Shown here: piece by piece, positions 11,208-60,813 of the stretch
Position numbering within the stretch: position 1 is the stretch's first letter
How the letters are laid out: each line of letters opens with the position of its first letter
Assembly: GCA_024405265.1 (NCBI GenBank)
Contig: JAKSOZ010000001.1
Location: forward strand, 27,263 to 91,262
Direction of reading: 5' to 3'
Origin: Kiritimatiellia bacterium
GTDB taxonomy: Bacteria; Verrucomicrobiota; Kiritimatiellia; RFP12; UBA1067
Length of the DNA stretch: 64,000 bases
Notes under the pieces: model-generated
The model's input: the letters and a program-made list of their open reading frames with translations, nothing else
The model's database searches: none
What the model was told of the DNA's origin: nothing
Position numbers and translations under genes: made by a program

Positions 11208-11227
11208 TTCTGCCGCGGAAGTTTCAT

Positions 11228-11998: not shown

Positions 11999-12143
11999 CC
12001 AAAAGCGAGGCGTTTGCGAAGCTGATATATCTTAATTTGGCTTTATGTCCGGCGATAGCCGATTCTATGGATGTCGGCATAGCCGACCTGCGGTTAAGTA
12101 GTTCATCCCTAACTCGTCCCTAATCCCCAGCCCCTAAATCTCA

Positions 12144-12193
12144 CTTTCTTCCTTTCCATTCTTGCCGCGGAAGCGGCAAATTTGGTATAATAT
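12144..12193 (+). promoter_or_regulatory. portable promoter module copy 1: CTTTCTTCCTTTCCATTC-TTGCCGCGGAAGCGGCAA-ATTTGGTATAATAT
   Basis: near-identical copies at 26547-26598 and 59300-59350; contains perfect hairpin TTGCCGC/GCGGCAA in -35 position and extended -10. Confidence 0.6.
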
Positions 12194-12204
12194 AAATCTA
12201 AAAA

Positions 12205-13136
12205 TGAAGATTTCGCTCATAACGGTTTGCTGGAATAGTGCCGCGGTGATTAGGACCGCGCTCGACTCCGTCTTCGCCCAGTCAACTCCCGCCGATCTTG
12301 AAATCGAATACATTGTCGTCGACGGCGGCTCGACGGACGGAACGGTGGAGATTTTGAAGGAATACGCTACTCGTCCTGTGCCCGAGCATCGTATGCTCGG
12401 GTCAACCCCTATCTCCTTCCGATACATCTCGGAACGTGATGCCGGGATGTATGACGCCCTGAATAAGGGCATTAGGATGTCCACGGGAGAGGTGATCGGG
12501 TGGCTCAATGCCGATGATGTTCTTGCCGCGGATGATGTGCTCGCGAAAGTGGCGGCCGCTTTCGAGGCGAATCCCGACATCGACGGCACCTACGCCGACA
12601 TCCGTTTTGTTAAGCCCCTAGTGAAGGGCAGTGATGAGCCCGAAACGAGCGGAAGTCCGAGCGAAGGGATACCCGGATTGGAGCGCAGCGGAAATAGGCG
12701 TAGCCCGCGGTATTCCGCCGAGGGGCTCCCTGAGGAGGAGCTTCCGGCGTTGAGGGCGTTGCCCACGCTTCGCTATTGCTCCGGCAAGCATTTCCGCCCC
12801 TGGATGTTCCGCTTCGGCACCCAGACGGCGCATCCCTCGACCTTCTTCCGCCGCTCCGCATTCGATCGCTGGGGCTTTTACTCGCTCGACTACGGCATGT
12901 TCGGCGACTTCGAGCTTCTCTGCCGCTTTATCTGGCGCCATCGCGCGAAAATGCGCTACCTCCCGTTCTGTACGACGGTCATGCGCTCCGGCGGCGCTTC
13001 AACGAACGGCTGGCGCACGACCTTAAAGATCAATCGCACGGACCTCCGCGCTCTTAACGCAAACGGCTGCTACTCGAATCTCCTCTTCCTCTACTCCCGC
13101 TACTTCTTCAAAATTTGGGGCTTCCTCTTTAAATAA
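12205..13136 (+). CDS. glycosyltransferase family 2
   Basis: ISLITVCWNSAAVIRTALDSVFAQ...VVDGGSTDGT...LNADD motifs. Confidence 0.7.
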
Positions 13137-13185
13137 CCTCTCTTCCGACTCCACCGAGCGGAAATTGTTGAAGTGATATTCTTGC

Positions 13186-13212
13186 CGCGGGAAGCCGCGG
13201 CGTTTTTTATAT
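13186..13212 (+). terminator. rho-independent terminator GCCGCGG-GAA-CCGCGGC followed by TTTTTT
   Basis: hairpin plus U-run read directly after GT2 stop. Confidence 0.65.
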
Positions 13213-13213
13213 C

Positions 13214-13258
13214 GGCGAAAAGTCAATTCTAGTGTTTTATAAAACGTTAGAATTGACT
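13214..13258. promoter_or_regulatory. 40-bp AT-rich palindrome AGTCAATTCTA-N-TTTTATAAAAC-N-TAGAATTGACT (copy 1 of 3)
   Basis: near-identical copies at 14093-14137 and 14163-14207 flank the two-wHTH regulator gene. Confidence 0.55.
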
Positions 13259-13275
13259 CGGATCTCGTTTAATGG

Positions 13276-14070
13276 TTATGCCTCTTCTTCGTCAGGGGAG
13301 GGTGGTTGAGTGTCCGGGGCGGGTTTGGGTTTGATGATGACAGGGCCGGTTTCTCGCCAATTTTGCCGCGGATTGCCTTCCGCGCGATTGACTTTTTTGA
13401 GGACGGCCTTCGTCTCTTTGTCGGTCGCGCGCCCCGTACCTTCGTTGTAGTAATACGCATGACTCGCCGCGTTGCCAAGCGTCAGATCGAGTAAAGTTGC
13501 GGCGATTTTGTCAGTGGGCCTCACGAGCTCGAAAGTTGAGGGGCCGTGATATGTGCGCGTTTCGTGGATGAGTCCCGCAGCTTGCAAAAAGCCGAGATGA
13601 TGATAAATCGACTTCACGCAAACTCCCATCGCAGCGTAAAGTTCGTTCAAATATGCCGGGCCTTGGGCGAGGCGAATCAGAATCGCCAGGCGGTTAAAGT
13701 GAGTGAAGGCGCGAAGGGTGGTCATGATCGACTCTTCCCACTTGGGCGGCAGCTCCGCGGCAAAATAGGTGGCGAAGGCTTTTTGGAGTTCGATCGAATC
13801 GGGAAGCGAGCGGTCCTGCTCGTCATTGTAGTAGACTTTGATGCGATCTCGCTTTACGCCGATGAGACCGCGTGCATTCAGTTGACGGAGAGAAATACTC
13901 GCGGTGGCATCGGAAATGCTGAGGATGCGGGCATAGTCTCGCACGCAAAGTGCGCCTTCATTTTGAATGGCGAGGCGAAGCACATTGAGTCTTGTCGCGT
14001 TCATCAACGCGCGGCAGGTGCGCCATAAAGTCGGCTTCAGTTTTTTCTCATCGTTCATGATGAAAATCAT
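13276..14070 (-). CDS. transcriptional regulator with two tandem ArsR/SmtB-like winged-HTH domains
   Basis: two repeats of the ArsR-type HTH pattern (RLNVLRLAIQNEGALCVRDYARILSIS... and FNRLAILIRLAQGPAYLNELYAAMGV...). Confidence 0.55.
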   Translation of the reverse strand: MIFIMNDEKKLKPTLWRTCRALMNATRLNVLRLAIQNEGALCVRDYARILSISDATASISLRQLNARGLIGVKRDRIKVYYNDEQDRSLPDSIELQKAFATYFAAELPPKWEESIMTTLRAFTHFNRLAILIRLAQGPAYLNELYAAMGVCVKSIYHHLGFLQAAGLIHETRTYHGPSTFELVRPTDKIAATLLDLTLGNAASHAYYYNEGTGRATDKETKAVLKKVNRAEGNPRQNWRETGPVIIKPKPAPDTQPPSPDEEEA

Positions 14071-46481: not shown

Positions 46482-46578
46482 CGCGCGAACGCCTAAGGTG
46501 GGCGGGGTAACTCCCCGCCCACTCAATACTATCACCCTCTTTACATTTGATGCGTAAAAATGGTATAATAGTATCCAA

Positions 46579-47274
46579 ATGTTGGAGATAAGGGAGATAA
46601 TTCGTGCATCCAGTCAGGGTGTTACCGTGCCTGTGCTATGCAAAGGCGATGATGGAGCACTGTACTGGTGCAAGGGCGATCAGGCTGGATTGGCATCTTG
46701 TCGAAACGAATGGGTTTGCGGATGCTTGGCTAAGGCTTTGAATTTGTCGATTCCAAAGTTTGATATTGCTAAAGTCCCTTGGGAGCTGTTTGTCGCATGG
46801 AGGAATCTTGCCGTTGATGTACCGCCATTGATTAAGGAATCAAATCCATATGTCTTTGCTTCTCGTCATGTGGAAGATGCGAAGGACATTGTTTCCGTTA
46901 GGGAAATCAAGGATGTTGATGAAAGTGACCAAGTGAAGATTTTTCTTTTCGACGAGTTTATCCGCAATGTGGATCGGACAGATTCGAACAGTAACCTCTT
47001 GGTAACTGCAGCAAAACGATGGTATGTCATTGACCATAATTCGTCATATGCCGAGAATTTTGACAGACCGAGTTTTGTGTCGGATCATTTGTTTAAGAAC
47101 TCGATTCATGGAGAAGCATACCGAGGGAAGGATGCGTTTCTAAAACAAATCAAAGAGGTGTTCACGGTTGATTTCTTAGAGTCTGTGTGGAGTGAAATGC
47201 CGAATTCGTGGGTATCTGACGATGCGGCTGAAGCTCACAAGGAAAGAATTCTGAAAACTATACATGGAGAATGA
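46579..47274 (+). CDS. HipA-C-like Ser/Thr kinase domain protein
   Basis: IRNVDRTDSNSNLLV aligns with HipA catalytic loop IGNTDDHLKNFSLL, and VIDHN with the HipA metal-binding D; TGGTATAATAG then 6 nt then ATG. Confidence 0.45.
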   Translation: MLEIREIIRASSQGVTVPVLCKGDDGALYWCKGDQAGLASCRNEWVCGCLAKALNLSIPKFDIAKVPWELFVAWRNLAVDVPPLIKESNPYVFASRHVEDAKDIVSVREIKDVDESDQVKIFLFDEFIRNVDRTDSNSNLLVTAAKRWYVIDHNSSYAENFDRPSFVSDHLFKNSIHGEAYRGKDAFLKQIKEVFTVDFLESVWSEMPNSWVSDDAAEAHKERILKTIHGE

Positions 47275-48125
47275 ATATGACTACAATGCATGTGTGCACA
47301 GTTGTGCCGGTTGTATTCTGCCCGTTCCCTGAGACCGGGGAGTTCGCTTGTATTGGTGTCATTATGTGTTGCCCTGCTATAGGTTGGTATGGGTATAAGC
47401 TTATTAAGGCCAACGAGCGTCCATTCAAGCGGGCGGCTAAGTTTTTTGATCAGATAGATGACTCGATTATTCGTACTGCCATTAGATGTGCTAAGCAGGA
47501 TATTGAGTACACTATAGATATGGCCACAGAAGAGCTTGACCCTGTTGTCCGTAATGCCGCTTTTCAAAACTTAATTAGACCGCGGGAGGGTTTTATTAGG
47601 TATGGCAATGCTAAGGCTATAATGGTTGAAGATTATCGGGCAGCATTGGAGGAGCAGTTCAAGAGTATTGTTCATCGGAACTTCATTGATAGAGAAGGCT
47701 ATTACGAGAATAAAATGCGTGAACGCGTTCAAGACTACCTGACATCGCGTAAGATAAGCTTCCATTCTAAGAAAAGGTATGAGTTCGAGAATGGTTATTT
47801 TAGCTTTAATATTCCGTTTGTTCTCGGCGAAAAAGATTCTGCAAAGCTAATTAAGCCGTTAAACTTCGTTACAAAGAGCAACAACGAGACAATGGAGCAT
47901 TGGTTTAAGTGGCGGACGCGTTTTGACTATCTTCACAGTGTCGGTTTTGATAAGGAGCGTATCCTTGTGCCGGTGCGTTTGCCGGAGCCTGGTCACGCTT
48001 CTTACGATGCGGCGTATCGTGTATTTGATCTTTTGCAGAAGCACACCATGACGGTTAACGAAGATGATAAAAAGCAGGAAGAGGCATCGGTTGTGAATTT
48101 TGCAACTAGCGGAGCCTCAGTATGA
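47271..48125 (+). CDS. DUF3037-like protein
   Basis: ATGA overlap with kinase gene; N-terminal HVCTVVPVVFCPFPETGEFACIGVIM pattern. Confidence 0.45.
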   Translation: MNMTTMHVCTVVPVVFCPFPETGEFACIGVIMCCPAIGWYGYKLIKANERPFKRAAKFFDQIDDSIIRTAIRCAKQDIEYTIDMATEELDPVVRNAAFQNLIRPREGFIRYGNAKAIMVEDYRAALEEQFKSIVHRNFIDREGYYENKMRERVQDYLTSRKISFHSKKRYEFENGYFSFNIPFVLGEKDSAKLIKPLNFVTKSNNETMEHWFKWRTRFDYLHSVGFDKERILVPVRLPEPGHASYDAAYRVFDLLQKHTMTVNEDDKKQEEASVVNFATSGASV

Positions 48126-48169
48126 TGCTAATATTGGTTAGAAGAACTTGTGATTAATGGGTGTGAACA

Positions 48170-48547
48170 ATGTCCCGAAAGAAGTCTTCAGAAGAGATTC
48201 ATGCGAGTGAAACGAAGTTTGTTGCGATTTGCGATTTGTTAAAGACCGCAATGGTGATATCTGTTGTAGGCTTTTTGGGTTATCGCGTTATAGAGATGAT
48301 GACTGTGGCACTCTCGGCAAAGCCTGAGACATTGGATTCGTTTGCAAAGTGTCTCTCGGAATGGAAAGTCGCCGATATCATTTTTGCTATTGTATCGATT
48401 ATTACTGGCGGAGGATGGTATATAGAACACCAACGCAATAACAATCTCGTACAAAGCAATGGCGATCTTAGGCATGAGAAAGAATCTCGTGATGTTGTCT
48501 CTACAAGAAGCGGACTTGACAAAGTCGGAAGAACACCTAAGGAGTAA
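48170..48547 (+). CDS. small membrane protein (2 TM)
   Basis: hydrophobic segments; no motif. Confidence 0.4.
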   Translation: MSRKKSSEEIHASETKFVAICDLLKTAMVISVVGFLGYRVIEMMTVALSAKPETLDSFAKCLSEWKVADIIFAIVSIITGGGWYIEHQRNNNLVQSNGDLRHEKESRDVVSTRSGLDKVGRTPKE

Positions 48548-48551
48548 GAAA

Positions 48552-49079
48552 ATGTGTGAAGCCTTACTATCTATTGTTGGATTCGTTGCATTAGTGTTCG
48601 CTTGGAGGGCATGGAAAAAGACCGCTCGTGGTGCAGTAAGAGATTGCTTGTTCTCATTGCGTGATGAGTGGCGCAATCACTATGTAGACTGCAAGCTGGA
48701 TATGCAAGATGGGGCTTATGCAGATATTAGGAATCTACTTAATGGGATGCTAAGATACACCAAGAGAATGCGTATGATGGGTTTCTTATATTTCGCTGCG
48801 CACGCATCCTCGGAGGAAGTGGCTTCGACATCATCTCGGATAGACGAGACAATAGATAGATGTGATAGCGATACTAGGGAGCTGGCAAAAAGGATTCGGA
48901 GAAAAGCATGTGAAGCAATTTTGATATATATGGCTGCCACATCGCTAGGGTTTATTTCTGCGGCAGTGTTTATGTTTGTTTATTTCCTTCCTAATAGGAT
49001 TTTCTCCGCAATAAAGACTAGTATACGCTCGGTGTTTGATGTCAAGCCTGCTATGCTTGAGTATGCTGTCCTATATTAG
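48552..49079 (+). CDS. membrane protein (N- and C-terminal TM helices)
   Basis: TAAGGAGTAAGAAA-ATG RBS. Confidence 0.4.
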   Translation: MCEALLSIVGFVALVFAWRAWKKTARGAVRDCLFSLRDEWRNHYVDCKLDMQDGAYADIRNLLNGMLRYTKRMRMMGFLYFAAHASSEEVASTSSRIDETIDRCDSDTRELAKRIRRKACEAILIYMAATSLGFISAAVFMFVYFLPNRIFSAIKTSIRSVFDVKPAMLEYAVLY

Positions 49080-49353
49080 ATCCGTCCGCTACGATGATCT
49101 CTCCTAGCTCGTGACAACGCCGATACATCGTCGCGCGGTCGAGCTTGGCGGCTTGCGCGGGCCAGAGCGAGAGAAAGAGCGCGCGGCCATCGGCGCAAAG
49201 CGCTTCGTACTCGCGCGGCGGATGGCCTCGCTCGGCGTAGGTCTGGGGCTCCAAGACAATCAAGTTGCCGCCAGCCTCGATGATCTCGCGCCGCGCCTCT
49301 TTCTCGAGCGGGCTCATGAAGGTGCCGATGCCTGCTCCGTCTTCGCCGATGCG

Positions 49354-50001
49354 CTAGGCGCGCTCCTTAACCGCAAGCCACTCGCTCGAGCCCTCGACGA
49401 TTGAGCGCGAGCAGCGGAAGGGCTCGATGAACGGCGCTTCGAGAAGCTCGAGGTTCCCGTAGGCGAACCACTCGCGCCCGAGGAAGCGAACGCCCGGAAC
49501 GACGCGAAAGAAGTCGCGCTTCGCCTGGCGGCGATAATGGCGCGCGGGGTTTTCGCGAATGTACTTGATGAAGGCATCGAGTTGTCCGCGGCGCTTAATG
49601 ATCCAATCGTGCCATTCGCGCTCGAAGATCGGCCGGACGGAACCGGCCTCAAGCCCGACAGACGTATGTTTCGCAACTGGCGGTTCCGTCCGCCAGTAGG
49701 CGCTCGACAGCGCCTTCATCAACTGGTAAACGACTCGCCCGAGGTTGCCGCGCTTCTCGATATCGGCGAGTTTGATCAGGAGATGAATATGATCGGGCAT
49801 CACGACGAAAGGGCGGATCGGCTCGATTACGAACCAGGTCTTATGGAAGTCGAGAATCGTCTTGATCAGAGCCTTCGTAATCGGCGTTTCGACTATTACG
49901 CCTTCTTGGTTGACCGAAAACGGCGCGAGGCCTTCGCGCTTTTTCAAGGTCACCATATAGTAATACGGCGCCGAATAGTCAAATCCGTTTAATCGATACA
50001 T
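49354..50001 (-). mobile_element. Y1 HUH transposase of the IS200/IS605 / REP-associated (RAYT) type
   Basis: HUH motif MPDHIHLLI; about 215 aa; consensus GGTATAATC promoter on minus strand at 50019-50030; gene is GC-rich relative to surroundings. Confidence 0.6.
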
Positions 50002-50821
50002 AAGGTTTTATGTTTTATATTGATTATACCATATTCTCTTTAAGGCATAAAGCGCAATTTGTGTTATCGATAAGATTGTGCAGTCAAGCTCCACGCGGGG
50101 CTTCGTCCCCGTGAATCCCAGATAATGCTTCATACTGCGCATGCGCCTTGATGACTGCTCTGACGTTATATCGGGTGGGGATTGGGGAGTGATTTGGGGT
50201 TGACGATGGATTGGGCGGCGAAAGGCGGCGTGCCGCTTTGTGGCTTTATCTCGCCCGGAGAGCGAGAGGTTGAACGCCGCCTTAAGGCGCTGCCGCGCGC
50301 TCGTTGGATCAAGGCGGTTCCTTATGGGCTCCCGCCGCGCTACGATCCGTCGGTCGAAGATTTGAGCCATCTCGCCGCTCATCGCGAGCTGATACTCTCG
50401 GCGTTCGACCCCGCCGAATTCGCGCCCTTTAAGGTAACTCGCGCCGGGTGCCTCGCGATGAACGACCGCCTCGTCGAGATAGCCAATGAAAGCACGGGGC
50501 TTCGCCCCGAATCACAAGTGTAATAACTGTATCCGGGAAGGGGGTTTGGTTTTGCCGCGCGAGGGGGTCGAGGGCCGCGCTAGCGTGGGTGCGAGTTGCT
50601 ATGCGCGCAGTGATTTCGGTGCCTACGATGTATGTGTTATTGGCAAAATGTGATTAGAGGGATTGGATATTATAGCGCATGATATGCCAATTGTTACAAG
50701 AGATTCCCGTAGGGTTGTCGGTGAACCATTGAGTTGACTGCGGTAATTCACAATTGACATGAGTCGGAATTATATGATATAATTTAATTAATCTTGTAGC
50801 ATAAATAGAAAGAAGGTGTAA

Positions 50822-50914
50822 ATGAAATTACAGTGGAAAGTCGTAGCAAAGCCGACAACCTCGGTTTGCTCGTTCGGTTGCTTTAAGCATTGTGATGCCA
50901 TGCGTAATGGCTGA
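50822..50914 (+). CDS. candidate precursor peptide A (30 aa) MKLQWKVVAKPTTSVCSFGCFKHCDAMRNG
   Basis: GAAGGTG 5 nt upstream; shares KL(Q/S)W(K/T)V with peptide B; 3 Cys in C-terminal half; TATAAT at 50777-50782. Confidence 0.45.
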   Translation: MKLQWKVVAKPTTSVCSFGCFKHCDAMRNG

Positions 50915-50928
50915 GGAGGTTTTGGTCA

Positions 50929-51030
50929 ATGCGAGAAATTAAGTTATCTTGGACGGTTTCTACAGAGAAGCCGAGACATATTGCGGCATCAAGTCACTAT
51001 ACTTTTGCCAATTGCAAGTCTTCTTGCTGA
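50929..51030 (+). CDS. candidate precursor peptide B (33 aa) MREIKLSWTVSTEKPRHIAASSHYTFANCKSSC
   Basis: GGAGG 9 nt upstream of ATG; followed by imperfect hairpin + T6 (51055-51088). Confidence 0.45.
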   Translation: MREIKLSWTVSTEKPRHIAASSHYTFANCKSSC

Positions 51031-51107
51031 AATAACAAGTACTTGTTCGCAAATAAACCGTCACGAGCGTCGTGTACGGTTTTTTGTTTAAGTATGGGGG
51101 TAAGAGT

Positions 51108-52445
51108 ATGAACGAGCAACGTGAGTCCGATGTTCCAATTGACAAGTCCTATAGCATGCCGTCGTTCAAACTAGTCAAATATAACGGTTGTGGCTTAGCG
51201 GTTTTTGTTGATATCGCACGATGGGTGGTTCTTAGGAACGATCGTCAGCAGGTAATCTTTAACGAGTTAACAAACGGCCGTTCGATTGGAAATGTATTGG
51301 AGGGACATTCGGACTCTATAAACGATGTTCGTGAGGTTCTTGTGCAATTAGAGGCTTTGCAGGTGGAGAAAATCAAAGCCAAATCGATTTTTTCAAACAC
51401 AAGATTGCATCTGCATCTTACTAATCGATGCAACATGCATTGCCCTCATTGTTATGTATGTTCGAGTGTTGCTTACGATAACGAACTCACCACCGAGGAG
51501 ATACAAAGTTTATGCAAGCATTTCAGAGATATCGGCGGAACCGATGTTTCTCTGACGGGAGGAGAACCGACATTAAGGGATGACTTTTTCGAAATTGTCA
51601 AATACATATCGGACATAGGAATGCGAGTTTCCGTTTACACCAACGGGTTGAATTGGGATGAAGAAAAGATAAAAAGACTCGCAACTTATTCTATCGAAGG
51701 TGTTCAGGTTAGTATTGACGGTTATGACGAACAAACCAACGCTGTTTTCAGAAATAAGGGAGCCTTTGAAAGGGCCTTGAACACAGTTGATTTGATGTTG
51801 AAGCATAAACTCCACTTGAAGATTGCAATAACGCCGCCATACGAAGTTCTTATGGAGAATCGGCAAAAGTATATTGATTTTGCGAAGTCTCTTCTTGATA
51901 AGTACGGGACGGATTCTTTGGAATTGAACTTTTCGTATGCACTTATGCCAGGGCGGGAACTGACGGTTGCGTTTGTTGATAGCGTCCGCGATAAATACCA
52001 AGATTATATAGATAAAATTGTGAGCTCGGTATGGCCGAATGCAAAGATGGACTCTTTCGTCGCAAATATCTCGGACGGCATATATGATAGTTGTGGTTAT
52101 GGTGGTTTGAATGTTTTGTCCAATGGCGATCTTTATTTTTGTGATAGACTTAGTGATGTAGCTAAAAACGGCAATATTAGAGATATGCCGTTCGAAGAAA
52201 TACATCGTCTTATGCAGCTAGCGGAAGAGACCGGAAAGATAGATCACTTCAGGCCTTGTAAAGACTGCGAACTTAAGTATATTTGCGGTGGTGGTTGCAG
52301 AGCTGAATGGTTCCGTCAATTTACGCAGATAGATAACGTTGAAGAAGTCGATTATACTTCGATAGCTCCGCGCAAGTGTACTTACTCCGATAAAGAGCGA
52401 ATTTATGATCTCATGTTAAGGACGACGGAGATGTTCTATCGTTAA
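51108..52445 (+). CDS. radical SAM enzyme with C-terminal SPASM domain and N-terminal PqqD/RRE-like extension
   Basis: CNMHCPHC (CxxxCxxC) about residue 105; C-terminal CKDCELKYICGGGCRA; first about 95 aa resemble a RiPP recognition element. Confidence 0.7.
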   Translation: MNEQRESDVPIDKSYSMPSFKLVKYNGCGLAVFVDIARWVVLRNDRQQVIFNELTNGRSIGNVLEGHSDSINDVREVLVQLEALQVEKIKAKSIFSNTRLHLHLTNRCNMHCPHCYVCSSVAYDNELTTEEIQSLCKHFRDIGGTDVSLTGGEPTLRDDFFEIVKYISDIGMRVSVYTNGLNWDEEKIKRLATYSIEGVQVSIDGYDEQTNAVFRNKGAFERALNTVDLMLKHKLHLKIAITPPYEVLMENRQKYIDFAKSLLDKYGTDSLELNFSYALMPGRELTVAFVDSVRDKYQDYIDKIVSSVWPNAKMDSFVANISDGIYDSCGYGGLNVLSNGDLYFCDRLSDVAKNGNIRDMPFEEIHRLMQLAEETGKIDHFRPCKDCELKYICGGGCRAEWFRQFTQIDNVEEVDYTSIAPRKCTYSDKERIYDLMLRTTEMFYR

Positions 52446-52446
52446 T

Positions 52447-54873
52447 ATGGGGGATTTGCTTATAGCGATTAATGCTTCTGCATCAAGACGAAATGACTTC
52501 TTGGTATTGCAAACTTATTGCGCAAAAGAAGTTGTTGTCAATAAGAACGGAAAATACAAGGGCGGTAGTATCTCGGAACTTGATGCTCTGAATTGCCCTC
52601 GTCTCTCAAACGTAAATAGTGCGTTAACACGGGATATATTTTCTAGATATTGCTTTCGTCTTTCATATAATTCATTTTACTTGCCGCTTTATGATGTTGC
52701 TGACTTCCAAAAAGCGTTTGGAGGAAGCTGCCCACTGTTCTTAGATAATACGGATAGGTCGATATTTGCAATTTCCGATGTTAAATATGATAGCTCCCCA
52801 CGAAGCAAATACAAGTATAAGATTGGCGCTGGCGAAATAACTCGCACGAATGATGGTATTCTTTGGATAAGCGACAAGGAAGTCGATCGGAAAGTTCGCC
52901 AAATTGTTCCGACAGCAAGGTTGGTATACAATCCGGAGATTCAGGCTCATACACTTTTTTTCGATTATGAAAACACCTCGATTCCATATAGTGCACAACA
53001 ACTTTCGATTTGCGAAAAGGACCGTATTTACTTGAGAAATTACCAAGCTGAGGACGTTGTTGTTAATCGATTGTCTCTTAATTTCAAAAGTCTTACAAAG
53101 GGCCGTTTCCTTTATAGCGGACATGGGCATCTTGCGGATTTGAAAGACACTTTACGGCAACAGGATATTTTTTTGGAAGAAGATCGGGAGTTTTTAGTTC
53201 CACAAGTTAATGTAAGACGAGGAGACTCCGGGTGGTTTGAGATTGATTTGTTCTGCCGTAAAGATGGTGAAATTGTGAATCTTGCGGAAAGAATCGATTT
53301 GTTCGCCTCTAAGAATGCTATTGAGATCGACGGCAAGAAGGTAGTGCTTCCGGAATCAATCGTAAGCGTTAAAGATAGGCTGGTGTTTGAAAATGGTAGA
53401 TTGAAGTTGTCGGAAGGGAATACGCTCGGCTTATTGCGTCTTATTTCTGATAGTGGTGCCAAGGTGGAGGAGTTCTTTCCGTATCCAAACATTCAGTTGA
53501 AGTTGTTGGAGAAGATGCAATCGGTTGCATATCCATATCAAGTCGAGGGAATCAAATGGCTGAAGTTTCTTTTCCTCAATCAAATAGGTGGATGCCTTGC
53601 GGATGATATGGGATTAGGAAAGACATTTCAGGTGATTTCATTTCTTTGTGATCGAGAGGTCAGAAAGAAAGTTAAGAAAGTTTTGGTTGTTGTTCCAAAG
53701 TCGCTCTTGACCAATTGGGTTAGGGAGTTTAACAAATTTGGCTCTGATTACAAGGTGCAGATATACCACGGCGCCGCACGAAAGGATTTCGATTTAGAGG
53801 CATGTGATGTGTTGATAACAACGTATAATACGGCAACCATCGATGAAGAAGTGTTAAGCAAGTGTAACTTCTCGGTTGCGATATTTGATGAGATTCAAAC
53901 TATCAAGAATCGCAATTCAACAACATCCGCGTCGATGAAGAAGCTGAATGCGAAGGTTAAGTTCGGATTGTCAGGAACTCCGATGGAAAATAATATCTCG
54001 GAGTTGTGGAATGTTATGGATGTAGTTAATCCTGGCGTTTTCTCCGATTGCGATACTTTTTGTCGGCGGTATGGTAATTCGAATTATGAAGAGCTAAGAA
54101 CGATCTTGACTCTATTCGTTATGCGTCGCACCAAAGAGCTGGTCTTGAAAGAATTGCCACCGAAAATCGAGCGAATTGTGTATTGTGATATGGATCCCGC
54201 GCAGCGAAAGCTTTACGATGGAATAAAAATGTCCGTCAGACGAGCTATTGAGAGATTGAAGGTGTTTGCAGCACCAGTTATCTTGAAAGGACTTACATTA
54301 CTAAGGGAATGTTGTTGTCATCCTCAACTCTTGGGCCATGAAGTTAATGTCGAAAACATTTCTGATTCTTGTAAACTAGACGCACTACGTATTCTTGTCG
54401 AGGACCTCTATAAAAATGGCCATAAGATATTAATCTTCAGTAGTTGGACATCGATGTTGGAAATTGTCAAGCATGAACTTGGGTCAGATGACGCGTATCG
54501 AAATCACATTTATTATCTGGATGGAAAAACATGCCACAGGCAAGAATTGATAGAACGGTTTGAATCAGCTGATAAGGGGGTGTTTCTCATCAGCATCAAA
54601 GCAGGTGGCGTTGGCCTTAATTTAACCTCGGCGCAGGATGTGATTATTTATGACCCGTGGTGGAACCCATTCGTTGAGCAGCAAGCGGTTGATCGCGCTC
54701 ATCGTATAGGACAAGATAAGCCCGTTTGTGTTTATAAGTTAGTGACGGCAGGTACTTTGGAGGAAAAGATTGTGGATATCGAAAACGATAAACGAAAGAG
54801 TTTCGATGCAATCATAAATGGTATATCCTCGGATAAGAATATGAAGTTAGAGGATATTTTGCGACTCCTTTAA
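52447..54873 (+). CDS. SNF2-family helicase/ATPase with unknown 350-aa N-terminal region
   Basis: YPYQVEGIKWL, DDMGLGKT (motif I), DEIQTIKN (motif II), helicase-C motifs (QAVDRAHRIGQ); ATG 2 nt after rSAM stop. Confidence 0.7.
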   Translation: MGDLLIAINASASRRNDFLVLQTYCAKEVVVNKNGKYKGGSISELDALNCPRLSNVNSALTRDIFSRYCFRLSYNSFYLPLYDVADFQKAFGGSCPLFLDNTDRSIFAISDVKYDSSPRSKYKYKIGAGEITRTNDGILWISDKEVDRKVRQIVPTARLVYNPEIQAHTLFFDYENTSIPYSAQQLSICEKDRIYLRNYQAEDVVVNRLSLNFKSLTKGRFLYSGHGHLADLKDTLRQQDIFLEEDREFLVPQVNVRRGDSGWFEIDLFCRKDGEIVNLAERIDLFASKNAIEIDGKKVVLPESIVSVKDRLVFENGRLKLSEGNTLGLLRLISDSGAKVEEFFPYPNIQLKLLEKMQSVAYPYQVEGIKWLKFLFLNQIGGCLADDMGLGKTFQVISFLCDREVRKKVKKVLVVVPKSLLTNWVREFNKFGSDYKVQIYHGAARKDFDLEACDVLITTYNTATIDEEVLSKCNFSVAIFDEIQTIKNRNSTTSASMKKLNAKVKFGLSGTPMENNISELWNVMDVVNPGVFSDCDTFCRRYGNSNYEELRTILTLFVMRRTKELVLKELPPKIERIVYCDMDPAQRKLYDGIKMSVRRAIERLKVFAAPVILKGLTLLRECCCHPQLLGHEVNVENISDSCKLDALRILVEDLYKNGHKILIFSSWTSMLEIVKHELGSDDAYRNHIYYLDGKTCHRQELIERFESADKGVFLISIKAGGVGLNLTSAQDVIIYDPWWNPFVEQQAVDRAHRIGQDKPVCVYKLVTAGTLEEKIVDIENDKRKSFDAIINGISSDKNMKLEDILRLL

Positions 54874-54877
54874 TGTT

Positions 54878-55477
54878 ATGGAAGTGACTGATATAGAAAT
54901 GTATGTGAGATATTTCAAGAAAGTTGTTTTCTTGAATATCTTGAGAATCTTTAAATCGATAGATTTCACCGGTAGGATCGAGTCAGACAATGAGGAATTG
55001 CGAGGATACGAAGGGTGCTATCCCGTGAGCCGAATGCTCGACTCATTGCAAATTTCAGAGCAAGATTCAGTTCTGGACATTGGATGCGGGAAGGGGATGT
55101 TCCTGTATTATGCCAAAAGGTATCCATTCAGACTCATTAGCGGTATTGATCTGAACGCTCAACTTGTTTCTGTTGCGCGGCGAAATATGTCTAAATTATC
55201 TGATACTCGAATTGATGTGTGGCATTGTGATGCACGTACATTTGGAGCGTATGACAAATACAATATATTCTTTATTAACAATCCTTTTTGTAAGGAAGTC
55301 TTGTGTGAAGTTGTTAATAGAATAATTGATAGCCAGCGACAGAATATGAGACGGATAACTGTCATTTATCAATTCCCGTATCATTTAGATGTGTTTGCAG
55401 GGCTTGGATTTATGATTAAAGCCGACGATGGCGTGAATGTTATTCTTGAGCGGAGTGTAGTTTTCGATGACGTGTGA
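54878..55477 (+). CDS. small class-I SAM-dependent methyltransferase (RsmD-like architecture)
   Basis: motif I VLDIGCGKG and downstream FFINNPF (degenerate D/NPPF). Confidence 0.45.
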   Translation: MEVTDIEMYVRYFKKVVFLNILRIFKSIDFTGRIESDNEELRGYEGCYPVSRMLDSLQISEQDSVLDIGCGKGMFLYYAKRYPFRLISGIDLNAQLVSVARRNMSKLSDTRIDVWHCDARTFGAYDKYNIFFINNPFCKEVLCEVVNRIIDSQRQNMRRITVIYQFPYHLDVFAGLGFMIKADDGVNVILERSVVFDDV

Positions 55478-55699
55478 GTTCTCGCAGATTTCTTATTCTA
55501 CGGCTTATGTGTTATGTGGTCGTCGATGCCTCCGCGCGCGTGTCTCGAACGCCGCGCTAGATGATAAAATGGATTGATGTTTTAAGTAACGAGATTGTGG
55601 TTTTATGCGTACTTATTAGCATAGAACGCTTTGCCCGCCGGCAATCTCCAATAGAGGTGTGCACACCTCGCGGAAAATATGATATAATATAAGCATACA

Positions 55700-55780
55700 A
55701 TGAAGAGCCCTAAGTTCTCCATAATCATCCCGGTCTACAATGTAACGCCGTATTTGCGCGAGCGTTTTTGTTTGGTGTAG
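55700..55780 (+). pseudogene. 26-codon remnant of a GT2 glycosyltransferase N-terminus (MKSPKFSIIIPVYNVTPYLRERF...stop)
   Basis: canonical GT2 start FSIIIPVYN directly after a consensus TATAAT promoter, terminated after 26 codons. Confidence 0.45.
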
Positions 55781-55796
55781 CGCGTTGATTTTTCTT

Positions 55797-56615
55797 ATGA
55801 CCGACATAACCGTTATCATTTTAACCGGGAAGGAAGAGCTGCATATCGGGCGGTGCTTGGAGAAGCTTGCGCCGCTTGAACCGCGGCAGATTATTGTCGT
55901 CGAATCGCAGAAGGGCGATCGGACGCATGAGATTGCGTTAGCGCATGGCGCGACTTGCGTTTGGCACGATTGGCCGGGGCTTTATGCGAAGCAATTCAAT
56001 TGGATTATTGATCAGCTTGCGCGAACTAATGTATCAAATACATTAGTTCACACGAAGTGGATTCTGAGACTTGATGCAGACGAGTATTTGACGTCTGAGA
56101 CGATTGAAAAGTTGAAGGCGGAACTGCCACGGATGCCGGAGGATGTGGCAGGAATTAACCTCGAACTCAAGCGGCGGTTTTGCGGGTGTGAGATTCGGCA
56201 CGCGACGAATGGCATTCGGCTTCTGCGCATTTGGCGCGCGGGGCGCGGCAGAAGTGAAGAGCGGGCGATGGACGAACACATTGAGGTTGACGGCAAGGTC
56301 ATCGACTTCGACGGCGCGTTCTACGACGATAATCTCAACGACATGGATTGGTGGCGCGAGAAGCACCGCGGATATGCGAAGCGCGAGGCGGCGGATGCGC
56401 TCGCGTTTGCGCGCGGCGAGATTCACTTCAAGCCCGCCAAAGAGGCCTACTATCGCATGCCGCGCTACCTGCGCGCGTTCATCTACTTCGCCATCCGCTA
56501 CTTCCTCAAAGGCGGGATCCTCGATGGCTACGGCGGCTGGATGTGGAACTTCTGGCAAGGCCTTTGGTATCGCTGCCTCGTCGATTACGAGATTGGAAAG
56601 TTGAAGAGGACTTGA
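55797..56615 (+). CDS. glycosyltransferase family 2-like protein
   Basis: TVIILTGKEELHIGRCLEKL...RLDADEY (DxD-like). Confidence 0.5.
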   Translation: MTDITVIILTGKEELHIGRCLEKLAPLEPRQIIVVESQKGDRTHEIALAHGATCVWHDWPGLYAKQFNWIIDQLARTNVSNTLVHTKWILRLDADEYLTSETIEKLKAELPRMPEDVAGINLELKRRFCGCEIRHATNGIRLLRIWRAGRGRSEERAMDEHIEVDGKVIDFDGAFYDDNLNDMDWWREKHRGYAKREAADALAFARGEIHFKPAKEAYYRMPRYLRAFIYFAIRYFLKGGILDGYGGWMWNFWQGLWYRCLVDYEIGKLKRT

Positions 56616-56616
56616 A

Positions 56617-58731
56617 ATGAAAATCGGCATTATTACCATTCAAAAGTGTAATAACTTTGGAGCGGATCTGCAAGCATATGCGCTAGGTGCGAAGTTGCGC
56701 AATCTCGGCTATGACGCGGAGAATATCGATTATCTCTTTTACAAGCATCCGCGGCACTTGAAAGGCAAGGGCGAAAAACCGATTTTCAAACTCTCGCTGG
56801 TTAATCGTGCGAAGGAAATTCTCTTTCCGATTGTTGCGGGGCTAAAGAATCTAAAGCGCCGCGCAGCAATCCATGCTCGTCATGAACGTTTTGCCGCGTG
56901 GACGGACGAGTATCTCAAATGCGGCCCGGAATACCGTTCTGTCGCATCGCTTTACGCGAATCCGCCGCGCTACGATGTCTACGTGGTCGGATCGGATCAA
57001 GTTTGGAATCCTCGCATGGGTTCGAATATCCTCCCATACTTCCTCGACTTTGCGCCTAAAGATGCCCGCCTAGTAAGCTATGCCTCATCGATGGGAGTTG
57101 CCGAACTCCCGGCCGGAGCGTTTTACAAATTCAAGCAACTCCTGCGTCGATTCTCGGCAATCTCCACTCGCGAGAAAAGTGCAGCGGACATTGTAAACGC
57201 AATGGCGCTAGGAGTAGAAGTCAAGCATGTTGTCGATCCGACCTTGCTATTGAGCGCGGCAGAATGGATGAAAGTGTCGAAGGTGCCAGCTGACATCCCC
57301 GCCAAGCCCTATCTCTTGTTGTATGATTTGATTGCTAGTGAAGAGACCGTAAAACTCGCCCGCAAGATTGCCGCGGAGAAGGGTTTATCGATTGTGCGCA
57401 TTGGAGATGGCGCATATGGCCCCGGCGAATTCATTTGGCTCTTTAACAACGCCGATTTCGTAGTTACGAATTCCTTCCATGGCACCGCTTTCTCAATCAT
57501 CAATAACAAGGACTTCTTCTCCGTCATACCTCGCGGCATGACGAATGCCGCGCGAATCGAAAGTCTACTTAAGGTTGTCGCTTCCGAAGATCGTCTCGTT
57601 CGAGCCGAGCATATCGATAATGTTGATTCTTCCGATTCGATAGATTGGACTAAGGTCAATTCGCTCCTCGAAGCGACGAAGACGGAATCACTCGGCTTTT
57701 TGACTCGCGCAGTAGAAAGCAAATCGAACCGAATCGAACCGAAGTTGCCAATTGGTTGCTACGCTGTCTGGAATGCTGATGATGATGTTCGTGCGGCTTC
57801 CACGAGTGGCGGACTTTTCCGTGTCCTTGCCGAGCGCACGATTGCGCGCGGGGGTGTCGTTTATGGCGCGGCGTTTTCTCAAGACTTCCATCACGTCTCG
57901 CATCAGGCCGCCGAAACAATCGATGAACTTGAGCCGCTGATGAAGTCGAAGTATGTTTGGAGCGATCCGACCGCGGCATACAAACAAGCCCTCGAACATC
58001 TCAAGTCCGGGCGCGAGGTCCTTTTCACCGGTACGCCTTGCCAAATTGCCGCGATAAAGTCGTTGGCGAAGGGTTATGACGAGAAACTGCTGACGATGGA
58101 CATCGTTTGCCATGGCACGCCTCGCCCTGAAATCTTCGAGTCCTACATTTCCGAACTTGAAAACCGTTTTGGCGGAAAGGTCACGCACTATGAATTTCGC
58201 AACAAGGATGCCGGTTGGAATTTCTCGCATGTGCGCGGCGTGTTCGAAAGCAGCGCTGTGTATGATAAAGTACTTCGCAATGATCTGTATTACCTGGCTT
58301 TTGGAATTGGAGATTCTCTTCGTCCCGGCTGTTTCAATTGCCCATTCATCGGACTTGAACGAGTCGCCGATTTTACGATTGCTGACTGCTGGCGCGTTGC
58401 TGCATCCAATCCGGAATTTGACGATGGAAAGGGGACGAGTCTCGTGCTTGTTAACTCGCCTAAGGCCGCGGCAATTTGGAAGGAGGTGCTTGCGTCAGGA
58501 AAAATCAAAGGCGGCGCATACGATCTTGACCTCGCGCAAATGCGTAACATGCCGCTAATGCAAAAGGCGCATAAGCCGCGCTCTTACGAAAGTTTCCAAC
58601 GCGTGTTTAACGAGACAAAGTCCTTTAATGAAGCAGCGAAAGTTTTTCTTACACGTAAGTTGCTCCTCAAAGCGACAATCGTCTACTGGGTTAAGAAACT
58701 CGGTTGGTTCTACTTCAAACATCATCAATAA
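56617..58731 (+). CDS. polysaccharide pyruvyl transferase domain fused to F420-hydrogenase/dehydrogenase beta-subunit-like (FrhB/FdhB) domain
   Basis: N-terminal MKIGIITIQKCNNFGADLQAYAL (PS_pyruv_trans-like); C-terminal half with Cys-rich FrhB-like region (CHGTP, CFNCP). Confidence 0.55.
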   Translation: MKIGIITIQKCNNFGADLQAYALGAKLRNLGYDAENIDYLFYKHPRHLKGKGEKPIFKLSLVNRAKEILFPIVAGLKNLKRRAAIHARHERFAAWTDEYLKCGPEYRSVASLYANPPRYDVYVVGSDQVWNPRMGSNILPYFLDFAPKDARLVSYASSMGVAELPAGAFYKFKQLLRRFSAISTREKSAADIVNAMALGVEVKHVVDPTLLLSAAEWMKVSKVPADIPAKPYLLLYDLIASEETVKLARKIAAEKGLSIVRIGDGAYGPGEFIWLFNNADFVVTNSFHGTAFSIINNKDFFSVIPRGMTNAARIESLLKVVASEDRLVRAEHIDNVDSSDSIDWTKVNSLLEATKTESLGFLTRAVESKSNRIEPKLPIGCYAVWNADDDVRAASTSGGLFRVLAERTIARGGVVYGAAFSQDFHHVSHQAAETIDELEPLMKSKYVWSDPTAAYKQALEHLKSGREVLFTGTPCQIAAIKSLAKGYDEKLLTMDIVCHGTPRPEIFESYISELENRFGGKVTHYEFRNKDAGWNFSHVRGVFESSAVYDKVLRNDLYYLAFGIGDSLRPGCFNCPFIGLERVADFTIADCWRVAASNPEFDDGKGTSLVLVNSPKAAAIWKEVLASGKIKGGAYDLDLAQMRNMPLMQKAHKPRSYESFQRVFNETKSFNEAAKVFLTRKLLLKATIVYWVKKLGWFYFKHHQ

Positions 58732-58742
58732 GGATTTCTGTT

Positions 58743-59291
58743 ATGGCAACCGACATTGAAAAGTATGTTGATGCTTTGAGTCTTAAGAACAAGCTTGCGC
58801 GTGCGGCTTGGATGGCGTTTTCGTGTGTACTCTTCCGCCCCTTTGCCGGGCCGCTCTTTCGATACTATCGTTCGCTCGTCCTTCGTCTTTGGGGTGCAAA
58901 AGTCGGGAAGCGTTGCGCAATTGCTGCCGGAGCGAAGATTTGGGCTCCTTGGAATCTGGTAATCGGAGATTATGTTGCGGTTGCGAATGGCGCCGAGCTT
59001 TATGATGTCGCACTGATAACGCTTGGAGATCATGTAACGATTTCGCAAGACTCCTACCTCTGTACGGCGAGCCACGATATCAGTAAGAAATTGAAGCCGC
59101 TTACATTCAATCCGATTCATATTGAAGCATATGCTTGGGTCTGTGCGCGTGCAACGATTCTCCCCGGAGTAACGATTGGAGAAGGTTCCGTCGCAGGTTG
59201 TGCATCAGTCGTCGCTAAAGATGTCGAACCCTGGACAGTGGTTGGAGGCAACCCGGCGAAGTTTATCAAGAAGCGGGAGCTTAAGGCTTAG
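58743..59291 (+). CDS. hexapeptide-repeat (LbH) acetyltransferase, WcaF-like
   Basis: isoleucine-patch repeats IGDYVAVANGAELYDVALITLGDHVTISQ. Confidence 0.6.
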   Translation: MATDIEKYVDALSLKNKLARAAWMAFSCVLFRPFAGPLFRYYRSLVLRLWGAKVGKRCAIAAGAKIWAPWNLVIGDYVAVANGAELYDVALITLGDHVTISQDSYLCTASHDISKKLKPLTFNPIHIEAYAWVCARATILPGVTIGEGSVAGCASVVAKDVEPWTVVGGNPAKFIKKRELKA

Positions 59292-59446: not shown

Positions 59447-59779
59447 ATGAAGGAACTTAAAATGATTTCACGTGGTTTGATTTTAATGATGTGTGGCGCG
59501 TTGATGATGTTGTCTGCGTGTACAACACAGGCAACTATTAGCGGACGTGAGATATCAGATGAAGTCCTTGAGAAACCATCCGACATGGCATTGTACAATG
59601 GGTGCTTTTGGAATGACCGCTTATGGGAAGATGCTTGGGTGAGCAAGAAAAGTAGACAACACACCTTAAAACAAGTGCGCATGCGAATCTCCCCGTGGCA
59701 ACCATTGGCTGCTATCGGCACGTTGGGACTGTGGGTGCCATTTTATGTGGAATGGGAGCTAAATGGAGATGCGTTATGA
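59447..59779 (+). CDS. small secreted/lipoprotein-like protein
   Basis: signal peptide LILMMCGALMMLSAC (lipobox-like); SD AAGGAA upstream; a 28-codon uORF (59357-59443) lies between promoter and this gene. Confidence 0.45.
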   Translation: MKELKMISRGLILMMCGALMMLSACTTQATISGREISDEVLEKPSDMALYNGCFWNDRLWEDAWVSKKSRQHTLKQVRMRISPWQPLAAIGTLGLWVPFYVEWELNGDAL

Positions 59780-60813
59780 AGATCCATAATATCGCGATTT
59801 TCTTTGACGGCACCGGACAAAGCAAGAGTCAACAAAAGCCGACAGATTACACAAATGTCGTGTTGTTGCATGATGCGCTTGATATGGCGAAGACGTCGAG
59901 TGTGTCACAAGTTCGCAAATATATTGAAGGCGTTGGCACACGGAAAGAAGAGTCTCTCAAGGGTGGAGCCTGGGGAATTGGACTTGATGAGCGTATCGAA
60001 GAGGCTTATGCATATCTTTGGCAAGAGTATAATAATGCCAAAGAAGCATCCGTCGAGCCCCATATATTCCTCTTTGGCTTTAGCCGCGGCGCATACGCCG
60101 CTAGATGGCTTGCTTCTTTGATTGTTAATGCGGGTATTCCAAAGAATGAAGACGATGTGCGTACGCTATTTATGAAGCACCGTTCTGAGAATCGGAAGTA
60201 TTTGGAAAAGATCAAGGCGGATAATCGTGTATGGTGCGACGCGACGATTGATTACATTGGAGTTTGGGATACGGTTGAGGCATCGGTTAACAAGAGCTTT
60301 GATATCGAGAATGCGCATCCGATGATAAAATCGGTTCGTCATGCATTAGCGATGGATGAGTGGAGATTCAAGTTCTTGCCGACAAGATACAATCCTCGGA
60401 ATGGTGTCGAAGAGCTATGGTTCCCCGGCTGCCATACGGATGTCGGCGGTGGATATCCTGAGCGAGGTCTGGCGCGTTGTCCACTCGAGTGGATCGCGGA
60501 AGGTGCAATTAATGCGGGACTGAAAGTGGATTCTGATAGGCTGAATCAATCCATTGATGATAGATCGTCCAAAATCAAATATCACGATGAGCTTGTAGAT
60601 GGAGGCTTGGGAATGGGTCTCTTGTGGTGGTTTACGAATATCTGTGGTGGTTTAAGGAGTAAGACATATCGTCAAATGCGTGTAGATGATTTTTACGATC
60701 AAACATATGTGACATACAAAGATCAAGCACCTTCTGATGACGAGCGACTCAATATTCCGGCCACATGTTTGGCTTACAATAATCACCATTCTGATGCGTT
60801 TGAGCGCGCGTAA
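59776..60813 (+). CDS. DUF2235 (Tle1-like alpha/beta-hydrolase) protein
   Basis: N-terminal IAIFFDGTGQS signature; GFSRGA nucleophile-elbow-like; ATGA overlap with previous gene. Confidence 0.55.
   Translation: MKIHNIAIFFDGTGQSKSQQKPTDYTNVVLLHDALDMAKTSSVSQVRKYIEGVGTRKEESLKGGAWGIGLDERIEEAYAYLWQEYNNAKEASVEPHIFLFGFSRGAYAARWLASLIVNAGIPKNEDDVRTLFMKHRSENRKYLEKIKADNRVWCDATIDYIGVWDTVEASVNKSFDIENAHPMIKSVRHALAMDEWRFKFLPTRYNPRNGVEELWFPGCHTDVGGGYPERGLARCPLEWIAEGAINAGLKVDSDRLNQSIDDRSSKIKYHDELVDGGLGMGLLWWFTNICGGLRSKTYRQMRVDDFYDQTYVTYKDQAPSDDERLNIPATCLAYNNHHSDAFERA

Follow-up and report, generated by a model that had tools for sequence, protein, structure and literature searches.

The window analyzed here is a 64,000 nt stretch of contig JAKSOZ010000001.1 from a Kiritimatiellia bacterium (assembly GCA_024405265.1). 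It carries a compact gene cassette of approximately 5 kb at 50.6–55.5 kb, with all genes on the + strand. Two small open reading frames, pepA and pepB, are followed by a gene for a radical S-adenosylmethionine (rSAM) enzyme, a gene for an SNF2-family ATPase and a gene for a small class I methyltransferase (MTase). The cassette has a GC content of approximately 41%, compared with 55–60% in the surrounding DNA. The genes are tightly packed, as a preliminary description of this DNA had stated. Four bases lie between the SNF2 stop codon and the MTase ATG at 54878, and the gap between the rSAM stop codon and the SNF2 ATG at 52447, given there as 2 nt, is one base. Comparison with related loci shows that the peptide, rSAM and SNF2 genes form one conserved, mobile unit that is co-inherited across phyla.

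pepA (50822–50914, + strand) encodes a 30 amino acid (aa) precursor peptide, MKLQWKVVAKPTTSVCSFGCFKHCDAMRNG, with the Shine-Dalgarno sequence AGAAGGTG upstream. pepB (50929–51030, + strand) encodes a 33 aa precursor peptide, MREIKLSWTVSTEKPRHIAASSHYTFANCKSSC, preceded by GAGGAGG. The first has the leader KLQWKV and the core FGCFKHC...MRNG, the second the leader IKLSWTV and the core SSHYTFANCKSSC. Related loci are designated by L numbers; a species-level scan with one genome each gave 80 loci, and there are approximately 100 in all. Both peptides recur in all related cassettes, and where dS is unsaturated the Nei-Gojobori (NG86) dN/dS values are 0.03–0.16 for pepA and 0.05–0.22 for pepB. The two open reading frames are real genes under purifying selection. 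The preliminary description had pointed to their Shine-Dalgarno sequences and shared KL(Q/S)W(K/T)V motif and had proposed conservation in homologous loci as a check; the peptides are present in the related loci and the motif is genuine.

An alignment of 49 peptides shows an N-terminal, strand-like h-x-W-x-h leader of the form K(L/I)xWxV, a spacer of approximately 10 residues and a (C/T)FxxC core, with the W, the F and the second C each conserved in >80% of the sequences. The leader consists of only about 7 residues and is situated at the extreme N-terminus. The conserved core of pepA is FGCFxxC. Of the cysteines noted earlier in the C-terminal half, those of this core are retained in relatives, but conservation does not extend to the first Cys of pepA (SVC). 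The pepA type is universal in the family, and pepB (SSHYTFxxCxxxC) occurs only in the clade of the window. In a deeper sister clade the 33 aa peptide reads MKK(I/V)x(I/L)xWKxKKVKxSxR(V/I)xxMYCFK(S/N)CxxNQN, and divergent members still retain YCFxxC. Neither Pfam nor NCBIfam has a model for either peptide. A streptide-like Lys-Trp cross-link within KLQW was weighed and not adopted, since the h-x-W-x-h pattern is conserved and the Lys three positions before the Trp is not. Two variants were also seen. In an uncultured Spirochaetales (L021, 253–830) four tandem precursors are found upstream of the rSAM gene, two of the A-type (FGCFHCC) and two of the B-type. In L031, at approximately position 4099, a Tyr replaces the second core Cys (MYCFKSYSVNQN), a natural variant that could be useful for locating a cross-link.

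A predicted sigma-70-type promoter, TTGACA-18-TATAAT with a TG extension, lies upstream of pepA at 50754–50783 (+ strand). The TATAAT noted earlier is thus part of a perfect match to the consensus (12 of 12 positions). Between the peptide genes and the enzyme genes is a hairpin followed by U6 (51056–51085, + strand), a terminator/attenuator candidate that had also been pointed out before; it has a folding energy of −24.3 kcal/mol (z = −3.4). The stem, CCGTCACGA...TCGTG..CGG, and the T-run are invariant in four loci (the window, L001, L009 and L010), and the flanks diverge. A search of Rfam showed no RNA family within 50400–55800, and the peptide region is therefore not a known riboswitch or small RNA. 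A 23 nt inverted repeat, 87% complementary, is found between the core-coding part of pepB (50991–51013) and a segment inside the rSAM gene (51858–51880), which may be due to chance or may reflect mRNA pairing.

The rSAM gene (51108–52445, + strand) encodes 445 aa. The ATG at 51108 is taken as the true start because all orthologues are approximately 445 aa in length. The sequence shows matches to Pfam Radical_SAM (E-value = 2.5e-27) and Pfam SPASM (E-value = 7.8e-6, residues 330–388). The CxxxCxxC motif, placed near residue 105 in the preliminary description, consists of C108, C112 and C115. These residues are invariant in 25 homologues, as are the seven C-terminal SPASM cysteines (C329, C345, C384, C387, C393, C397 and C424), which bear out the cluster proposed there. 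The same description had placed a PqqD-like extension, the RiPP recognition element (RRE; RiPP, ribosomally synthesized and post-translationally modified peptide), at the N-terminus. The AlphaFold2 model (predicted local distance difference test, 88) displays the RRE topology, with strands at 21–25, 28–33 and 38–42 and helices at 45–55, 60–66 and 68–84, but the Pfam PqqD model gives no match at E ≤ 0.01.

The best NCBIfam model for the rSAM is the StsB sactipeptide maturase (residues 31–402, 128.6 bits against a cut-off of 625); SkfB scores 99.7 against 300 bits and PapB 70.6 against 340; sister-clade rSAM sequences score 52.9–60.1 bits with AlbA, against a cut-off of 850. The best PDB sequence relative is SkfB (2.5e-22), with anSME in eighth place (5.8e-7). 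The top Foldseek folds are SkfB, CteB, TigE, anSME and SuiB; alignments to SkfB, CteB and SuiB cover most of the chain, at 394–460 columns, the longest being CteB with 460. PqqE and MftC are also among the matches, and the rSAM is above the cut-off of no curated family. From these domain, fold and sequence matches the protein is therefore predicted to be an RRE–rSAM–SPASM peptide maturase, nearest to the thioether formers SkfB, CteB and StsB and outside every curated subfamily. This agrees with the sacti-/ranthipeptide-type architecture suggested at the outset. An anSME-type assignment, raised there as the alternative to be checked, was rejected; the rSAM has an RRE, which anSME lacks, anSME ranks lower in both sequence and fold, and the cassette has no sulfatase gene.

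The SNF2 gene (52447–54873, + strand) encodes 808 aa, of which residues 1–355 are family-specific and residues 357–795 form a Snf2/ISWI-like translocase core. The core matches Pfam SNF2-rel_dom (2.2e-61) and Helicase_C (3.9e-21), and the ATPase motifs GLGKT, DEIQ and DRAHRIGQ are intact in the sequence. Among PDB entries the Sulfolobus Snf2 core 1z63 matches best (3.9e-80), with ISWI next. Its sequence thus identifies the protein as an SNF2-family dsDNA translocase, presumably active. An exhaustive phmmer search of 1.84 billion representatives with the 355 N-terminal residues gave 19 clusters, all of them SNF2 proteins of approximately 800–844 aa with the region at their N-terminus, or fragments. 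A word-indexed search with this region alone gave one fragment and was uninformative. The best NCBIfam match of the whole protein is the "pilus expression-regulating Snf2 family helicase" (368 bits against a cut-off of 1100), and in Clostridium perfringens the match to this model extends into the N-terminal region. Scores against defence families are ZorD 203.8 against 1500 bits, DrmD 91.8 against 950 and DpdE 41 against 500, and the PADLOC matches cover only the helicase core.

The partnership of these genes recurs outside the window. For each rSAM relative of 43% identity or more, an SNF2 gene of approximately 810 aa with the shared N-terminal region comes next, within a few bases. Where the match extends to the start of SNF2, as it does in all close relatives, the gap is 1–27 nt or the genes overlap. 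The rSAM-SNF2-MTase triplet is also found in a second metagenome-assembled genome and in Ruminococcus, Subdoligranulum, Treponema, Monoglobus and Clostridium. A strict form of the peptide pattern is present in 40 of the 50 loci with SNF2 directly after the rSAM gene and in 0 of the 44 loci without SNF2. Because the loci are phylogenetically related, these counts are a description and not a P value; most of the 10 SNF2 loci that fail the strict pattern have variant peptides or are truncated. The loci without SNF2 include a sister group, L024–L070, mostly Bacteroidales, whose rSAM/SPASM genes are 32–39% identical and have no K(L/I)xWxV peptide.

The order of the genes is permuted between lineages. 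In the closest loci (L001, L008–L010; rSAM 65–69% identical) both peptides are upstream with the same motifs, and in L013/14 (56% identical) the peptides are likewise upstream of the rSAM gene. In L002–7 and L015–20 they are found downstream of the MTase gene. The peptides are 3′ of the MTase in Ruminococcus flavefaciens, Monoglobus, Subdoligranulum variabile, Clostridium sp. MSJ-8 and Treponema, where the gap upstream of the rSAM gene is too short or is empty. Since the place of the peptides varies by lineage, 5′ of the rSAM in some and 3′ of the MTase in others, the block is one functional unit. The deeper sister clade (rSAM 29–39% identical) keeps the order peptide-rSAM-SNF2; its members are in Lachnospiraceae, Erysipelotrichaceae, Negativicutes, Heliophilum, Pelotomaculum, Spirochaetia, Prevotellaceae, Helicobacter valdiviensis and Desulfamplus. 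Look-ups seeded with SNF2 also showed peptide-rSAM-SNF2 at SNF2 identities of 39% (C. perfringens) and 36% (another lineage). At least six phyla carry the partnership: Kiritimatiellota, Bacillota, Spirochaetota, Bacteroidota, Campylobacterota and Desulfobacterota. The hosts are all anaerobes or microaerophiles, mostly gut and rumen anaerobes, with S. variabile, R. flavefaciens and Treponema saccharophilum as cultured carriers.

Chance adjacency of unrelated genes within an island, or spurious calling of the small open reading frames, would agree with the size of the peptides, which is below that usually called as genes, and with RefSeq, in which the peptide of the Treponema copy is unannotated. 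However, the cross-phylum set with permuted order, the purifying selection and the counts of 40/50 and 0/44 have already refuted this explanation, and its probability is negligible. The preliminary description had left two alternatives, that a RiPP cluster had been recruited next to a helicase or that the peptides and the rSAM belong to a helicase-based system, and had asked for co-occurrence of rSAM and SNF2 elsewhere. That co-occurrence is seen in every close relative and in the deeper sister clade. The second alternative is favored and a mere recruitment is less so, because no locus without SNF2 shows the peptide motif, and the set stays together although its gene order varies. Of the triplet that was to be looked for, the rSAM-SNF2 coupling recurs, but the MTase does not extend to the sister clade or to L017.

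The MTase (54878–55477, + strand; 199 aa) shows motif I as LDIGCGKG and motif IV as FINNPF, the latter nearly invariant in MTases of this type, and has no target-recognition domain. Weak matches are found to Mtq2/HemK-like proteins, PrmA, Erm/KsgA-type rRNA methylases and RiPP methylases. In PADLOC the best match is mad2 (7.5e-14), followed by an orphan MTase (1.2e-7). Scores with glutamine-N5 families are below the cut-offs (PrmC, 25.7 against 199 bits; HemK2/MTQ2, 23.6 against 87). In L023 the MTase is another one, of 259 aa and with NPPY as its motif; its best curated matches are PrmC and PrmB, with PrmC at only 58.6 against 199 bits. The top NCBIfam model for both types is PRK14968, which we take to be Mtq2/HemK-related. 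The "RsmD-like" label given to the MTase at first is too specific, the nearest curated models being HemK/Mtq2-like. By its motifs the protein would be an (N)PP(F/Y)-type amino-methyltransferase, its likeness to HemK/Mtq2 being a resemblance only and not family membership.

The 199 aa MTase accompanies the clade of the window, is missing from L017, which keeps peptide, rSAM and SNF2, and is an accessory rather than a core component. In at least 15 sister-clade loci, from three phyla, the MTase is absent and an M42 aminopeptidase is found just upstream of the peptide. A further conserved gene was sought downstream of SNF2 in the sister clade, and the neighbours there are variable. Both accessory types are plausible as peptide-tailoring enzymes, and within the cassette one takes the place of the other. 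For this reason we lean slightly toward the peptide, rather than nucleic acid, as the presumed substrate of the MTase.

The cassette appears inserted into its surroundings. A 29 nt GC-rich direct repeat is found at 50555–50583 (+ strand; CCGCGCGAGGGGGTCGAGGGCCGCGCTAG) and again at 55532–55560 (+ strand), where 23 of 29 positions are identical to the left copy. These are the only two copies in the window, where none is expected (100 shuffles), and they bracket the low-GC block exactly: the GC content drops from approximately 55% to approximately 41% just after the left repeat and rises after 55.5 kb. The pair may be an insertion-site duplication or an att-like site. A long duplication of the downstream flank in the upstream flank was considered and rejected, what they have in common being the 29 nt repeat and a short promoter-like stretch. 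In other genomes the cassette adjoins IS66, an integrase or a Mob_Pre relaxase. One plasmid, a 424-kb Treponema megaplasmid, carries a homologue, and one IMG/VR contig has a sister-clade cassette. A collection of phage genomes showed no homologue; with the single IMG/VR contig as the only other trace, a phage origin is therefore not supported.

Neighbours at sampled loci include a type IV restriction endonuclease/PbeA-like helicase, a PDC-M62A/PtuA-like ATPase, a PDC-S15 FRG protein, YhcG nuclease, HipA-like and RES proteins, HsdR, a colicin-DNase/WHH toxin, a KAP NTPase, an adenosine-deaminase protein and a patatin. Such frequent defence and mobile neighbourhoods could point to a nucleic-acid modification or restriction-like system, in which SNF2 translocates on DNA, the MTase labels the DNA or RNA of the host as self, the rSAM has nucleic acid or SNF2 as its substrate, and the peptides are a cofactor, a sulfur/radical relay or a regulator and not the end product. 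The SNF2 core is like the helicases of DISARM, Zorya and Dpd, and the MTase has the mad2 match and an amino-methylase motif IV. However, the MTase is absent from the sister clade and L017, which keep the other three components; it lacks a target-recognition domain and no nuclease was found; the rSAM has an RRE and aligns over its full length with peptide maturases; and all defence-family scores are far under the cut-offs. A system of this kind is improbable.

Some bacterial Snf2 proteins change gene expression, and a physiological regulator is a further explanation. Peptide modification dependent on oxygen or redox state would report the state of the cell to an SNF2 remodeler that alters gene expression. 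The pilus-regulating Snf2 model is the best NCBIfam match, extending into the N-terminal region in C. perfringens, some loci lie amid housekeeping genes, and all the hosts are anaerobes or microaerophiles. Against this, the score with that model is far under its cut-off (368 against 1100 bits), and the distribution across phyla is patchy, the composition atypical of the host, the cassette flanked by repeats, and integrase, IS or relaxase genes adjoin it. The latter features indicate an accessory mobile function, and a physiological regulator is quite improbable.

The reading that we prefer is that the segment is a horizontally mobile functional unit consisting of the peptide(s), the rSAM maturase, a dedicated SNF2 translocase and an optional tailoring enzyme. 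The strong promoter would drive pepA and pepB, and the hairpin and U-tract would pass part of the transcription into the coupled rSAM-SNF2-MTase genes. With partial read-through at the hairpin the peptide would therefore outnumber the enzyme, and we hold with moderate confidence that the layout gives such an excess. The winged-helix RRE of the maturase would bind the beta-strand-like N-terminal leader K(L/I)xWxV, and modification of pepA/pepB-type peptides by the rSAM through this recognition is strongly suggested. The radical SAM/SPASM domain would then place an intramolecular cross-link in the invariant (C/T)FxxC core. By analogy with the nearest relatives this is probably, at moderate confidence, a Cys-derived thioether of the sacti- or ranthipeptide kind. 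Aminopeptidases would trim the leader, a step for which the sister clade has the dedicated M42 enzyme. In the clade of the window the HemK/Mtq2-like NNPF MTase may N-methylate the peptide, methylation of nucleic acid being less favored.

For the fate of the product, the conventional alternative is a RiPP cluster making an exported bacteriocin or signal, with SNF2 and the MTase in self-protection, e.g. by clearing a peptide-trapped DNA-bound target or by methylating the target. A peptide with an RRE-rSAM-SPASM enzyme and a tailoring enzyme follows classical RiPP logic, an M42 aminopeptidase or an MTase suits leader removal or tailoring, and the MTase shows weak matches to Erm/KsgA-type rRNA methylases. 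However, neither a transporter nor a leader endoprotease (C39 or other) nor a membrane immunity gene was found in the cassette of the window or in the related cassettes inspected (>50, from six phyla), and we therefore infer that the product stays in the cell. In addition, the leader has only about 7 residues, at the extreme N-terminus, and the SNF2 N-terminal region is exclusive to the partnership. SNF2 is also more constant than the tailoring enzymes, which is unusual for a resistance gene. An exported product is thus unlikely.

In the preferred reading the peptide would be a ligand or small subunit of the SNF2 N-terminal region, gating or directing the dsDNA translocase. The role would most likely be in inter-genomic conflict, i.e. 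defence against, or competition between, mobile DNA, with DNA-based regulation as an alternative. That the product remains intracellular and acts on or with the N-terminal region, probably in conflict with foreign DNA, is a serious candidate to which we give rather less than even weight. The more specific form, in which the cross-linked peptide is an obligate ligand or subunit that switches or targets its dedicated SNF2, i.e. a peptide-gated "remodeler" carried on mobile islands of anaerobes and directed against foreign DNA, is put forward more tentatively, though its chance is substantial. The proposal as a whole, mechanism included, falls only somewhat short of an even chance.

Several observations weigh against it. 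The contact between peptide and SNF2 is itself a point that we infer. No nuclease or other effector domain was found in the cassette or in the SNF2 protein, and for the SNF2 N-terminal region a similarity to ACT domains is weak and Foldseek gave nothing at E ≤ 1e-3. The SNF2 gene of L099 (7001–9475), 32% identical to that of the window and 48% to that of the sister-clade L073, has no rSAM or peptide within 7 kb. Several loci are situated amid housekeeping genes, and the association with defence islands describes sampled loci. The cross-link chemistry is deduced from the conserved Cys and Phe and from the nearest relatives alone; the rSAM misses all family-specific NCBIfam cut-offs widely (StsB, 129 against 625 bits), and the (N)PP(F/Y) motif of the MTase fits amino-methylation of nucleic acid as well as methylation of peptide.

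Some further features of the neighbourhoods are recorded here. In Xylanibacter ruminicola (L092), an M42-peptide-rSAM-SNF2 cassette is situated between genes for a KAP-family NTPase and an 887 aa adenosine-deaminase-domain protein (2806–5064 and 10880–13543); the flanking genes resemble the halves of a RADAR-like system split by insertion. In the window, upstream of the left repeat at a distance of approximately 550 bp, a 215 aa open reading frame (49354–50001, − strand) weakly matches the NCBIfam model of a REP-associated tyrosine transposase (4.4e-11; 42.8 bits, with a cut-off of 80). A second low-GC island (46500–49100, approximately 43%) contains a DUF3037 protein gene (47271–48125, weak PADLOC PDC-M66B match) and two small overlapping predicted open reading frames, and 48459–49079 is weakly similar to the PADLOC 1TM-TIR model. 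It could be another defence-type insert. Downstream of the cassette (55785–59291 and 59695–60813), the host genes are a polysaccharide locus with a GT2 glycosyltransferase, a polysaccharide pyruvyl transferase fused to FrhB-like domains and a hexapeptide transferase, after which comes a Tle1-like phospholipase of the type VI secretion system.

Modified ribosomal peptides are usually seen as exported antibiotics, signals or cofactor precursors, and bacterial SNF2 motors as restriction-like defence helicase subunits or transcription factors. Here RiPP-type peptides and SNF2 motors are locked together across at least six phyla, with a precursor family that is unrecorded. Control of the motor by the peptide, if true, would amount to a new regulatory principle for DNA translocases and would give RiPPs a new biological role. 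Should SNF2 rather shield the producer, then the target of the peptide is probably a DNA-bound one, and the peptide is a lead for a new intracellular inhibitor. The unit is small (3–5 genes) and is present in cultured strains, and it is therefore directly testable.

Among known systems, the cassette is similar to SkfA/SkfB, CteA/CteB (SCIFF), StsA/StsB, SboA/AlbA and PapA/PapB in having a short Cys-containing precursor beside an RRE-rSAM with CxxxCxxC and a seven-Cys SPASM domain, and sacti-/ranthipeptide maturases are the best sequence, profile and fold matches of its rSAM. It differs from these systems in its peptide family, K(L/I)xWxV...(C/T)FxxC...N-x, which is not in Pfam or NCBIfam, in having no transporter or protease, and in its obligate SNF2; we know of no sacti-/ranthipeptide system with such an obligate partner. 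In PqqA/PqqE-PqqD, MftA/MftC-MftB and QhpC/QhpD, an RRE-dependent rSAM-SPASM enzyme likewise modifies a small peptide, and the product, which is not exported, serves a partner enzyme within the cell. Compared with these, the partner in the cassette is a DNA translocase and not an oxidoreductase, the peptide motifs are unrelated, and the product would presumably serve the SNF2 protein.

DISARM (DrmD with DrmMI), type I Zorya (ZorD), Dpd (DpdE) and Hma (helicase, methylase and ATPase) also carry an SNF2-type core, sometimes with an MTase, on mobile islands. However, none of them has a peptide or an rSAM, and the cassette is without DrmA/B/C, ZorA/B/C, DpdA-K and HmaC and without a nuclease domain, and has its unique 355 residue SNF2 N-terminus. 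The MTase shares the class I fold, motif I GxGxG and motif IV (D/N)PP(Y/F) with HemK/PrmC/Mtq2 and RsmC/RsmD/Erm (NNPF in the window, NPPY in L023) but scores well under the cut-offs of these families, and at 199 aa has no substrate-recognition domain. In RefSeq the proteins of the Treponema copy are labelled "radical SAM protein", "DEAD/DEAH box helicase" and "class I SAM-dependent methyltransferase". The combination of rSAM, SNF2 and peptide has no description in the full-text literature searched, which lacks most subscription-journal papers.

The closest concept is that of a small peptide with an rSAM-SPASM maturase within predicted NTPase-driven conflict systems (Kaur, Burroughs, Iyer and Aravind, 2020; PMC7159879). 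Those systems have VMAP or FtsH ternary architectures and peptidase-processed FxSxx-type peptides and are found in multicellular bacteria; unlike the cassette, they have no dedicated SNF2, and their peptide and rSAM families are different. Conservatively described, the cassette is a peptide/rSAM module of the RiPP type whose obligate partner, an SNF2 protein, is without precedent.

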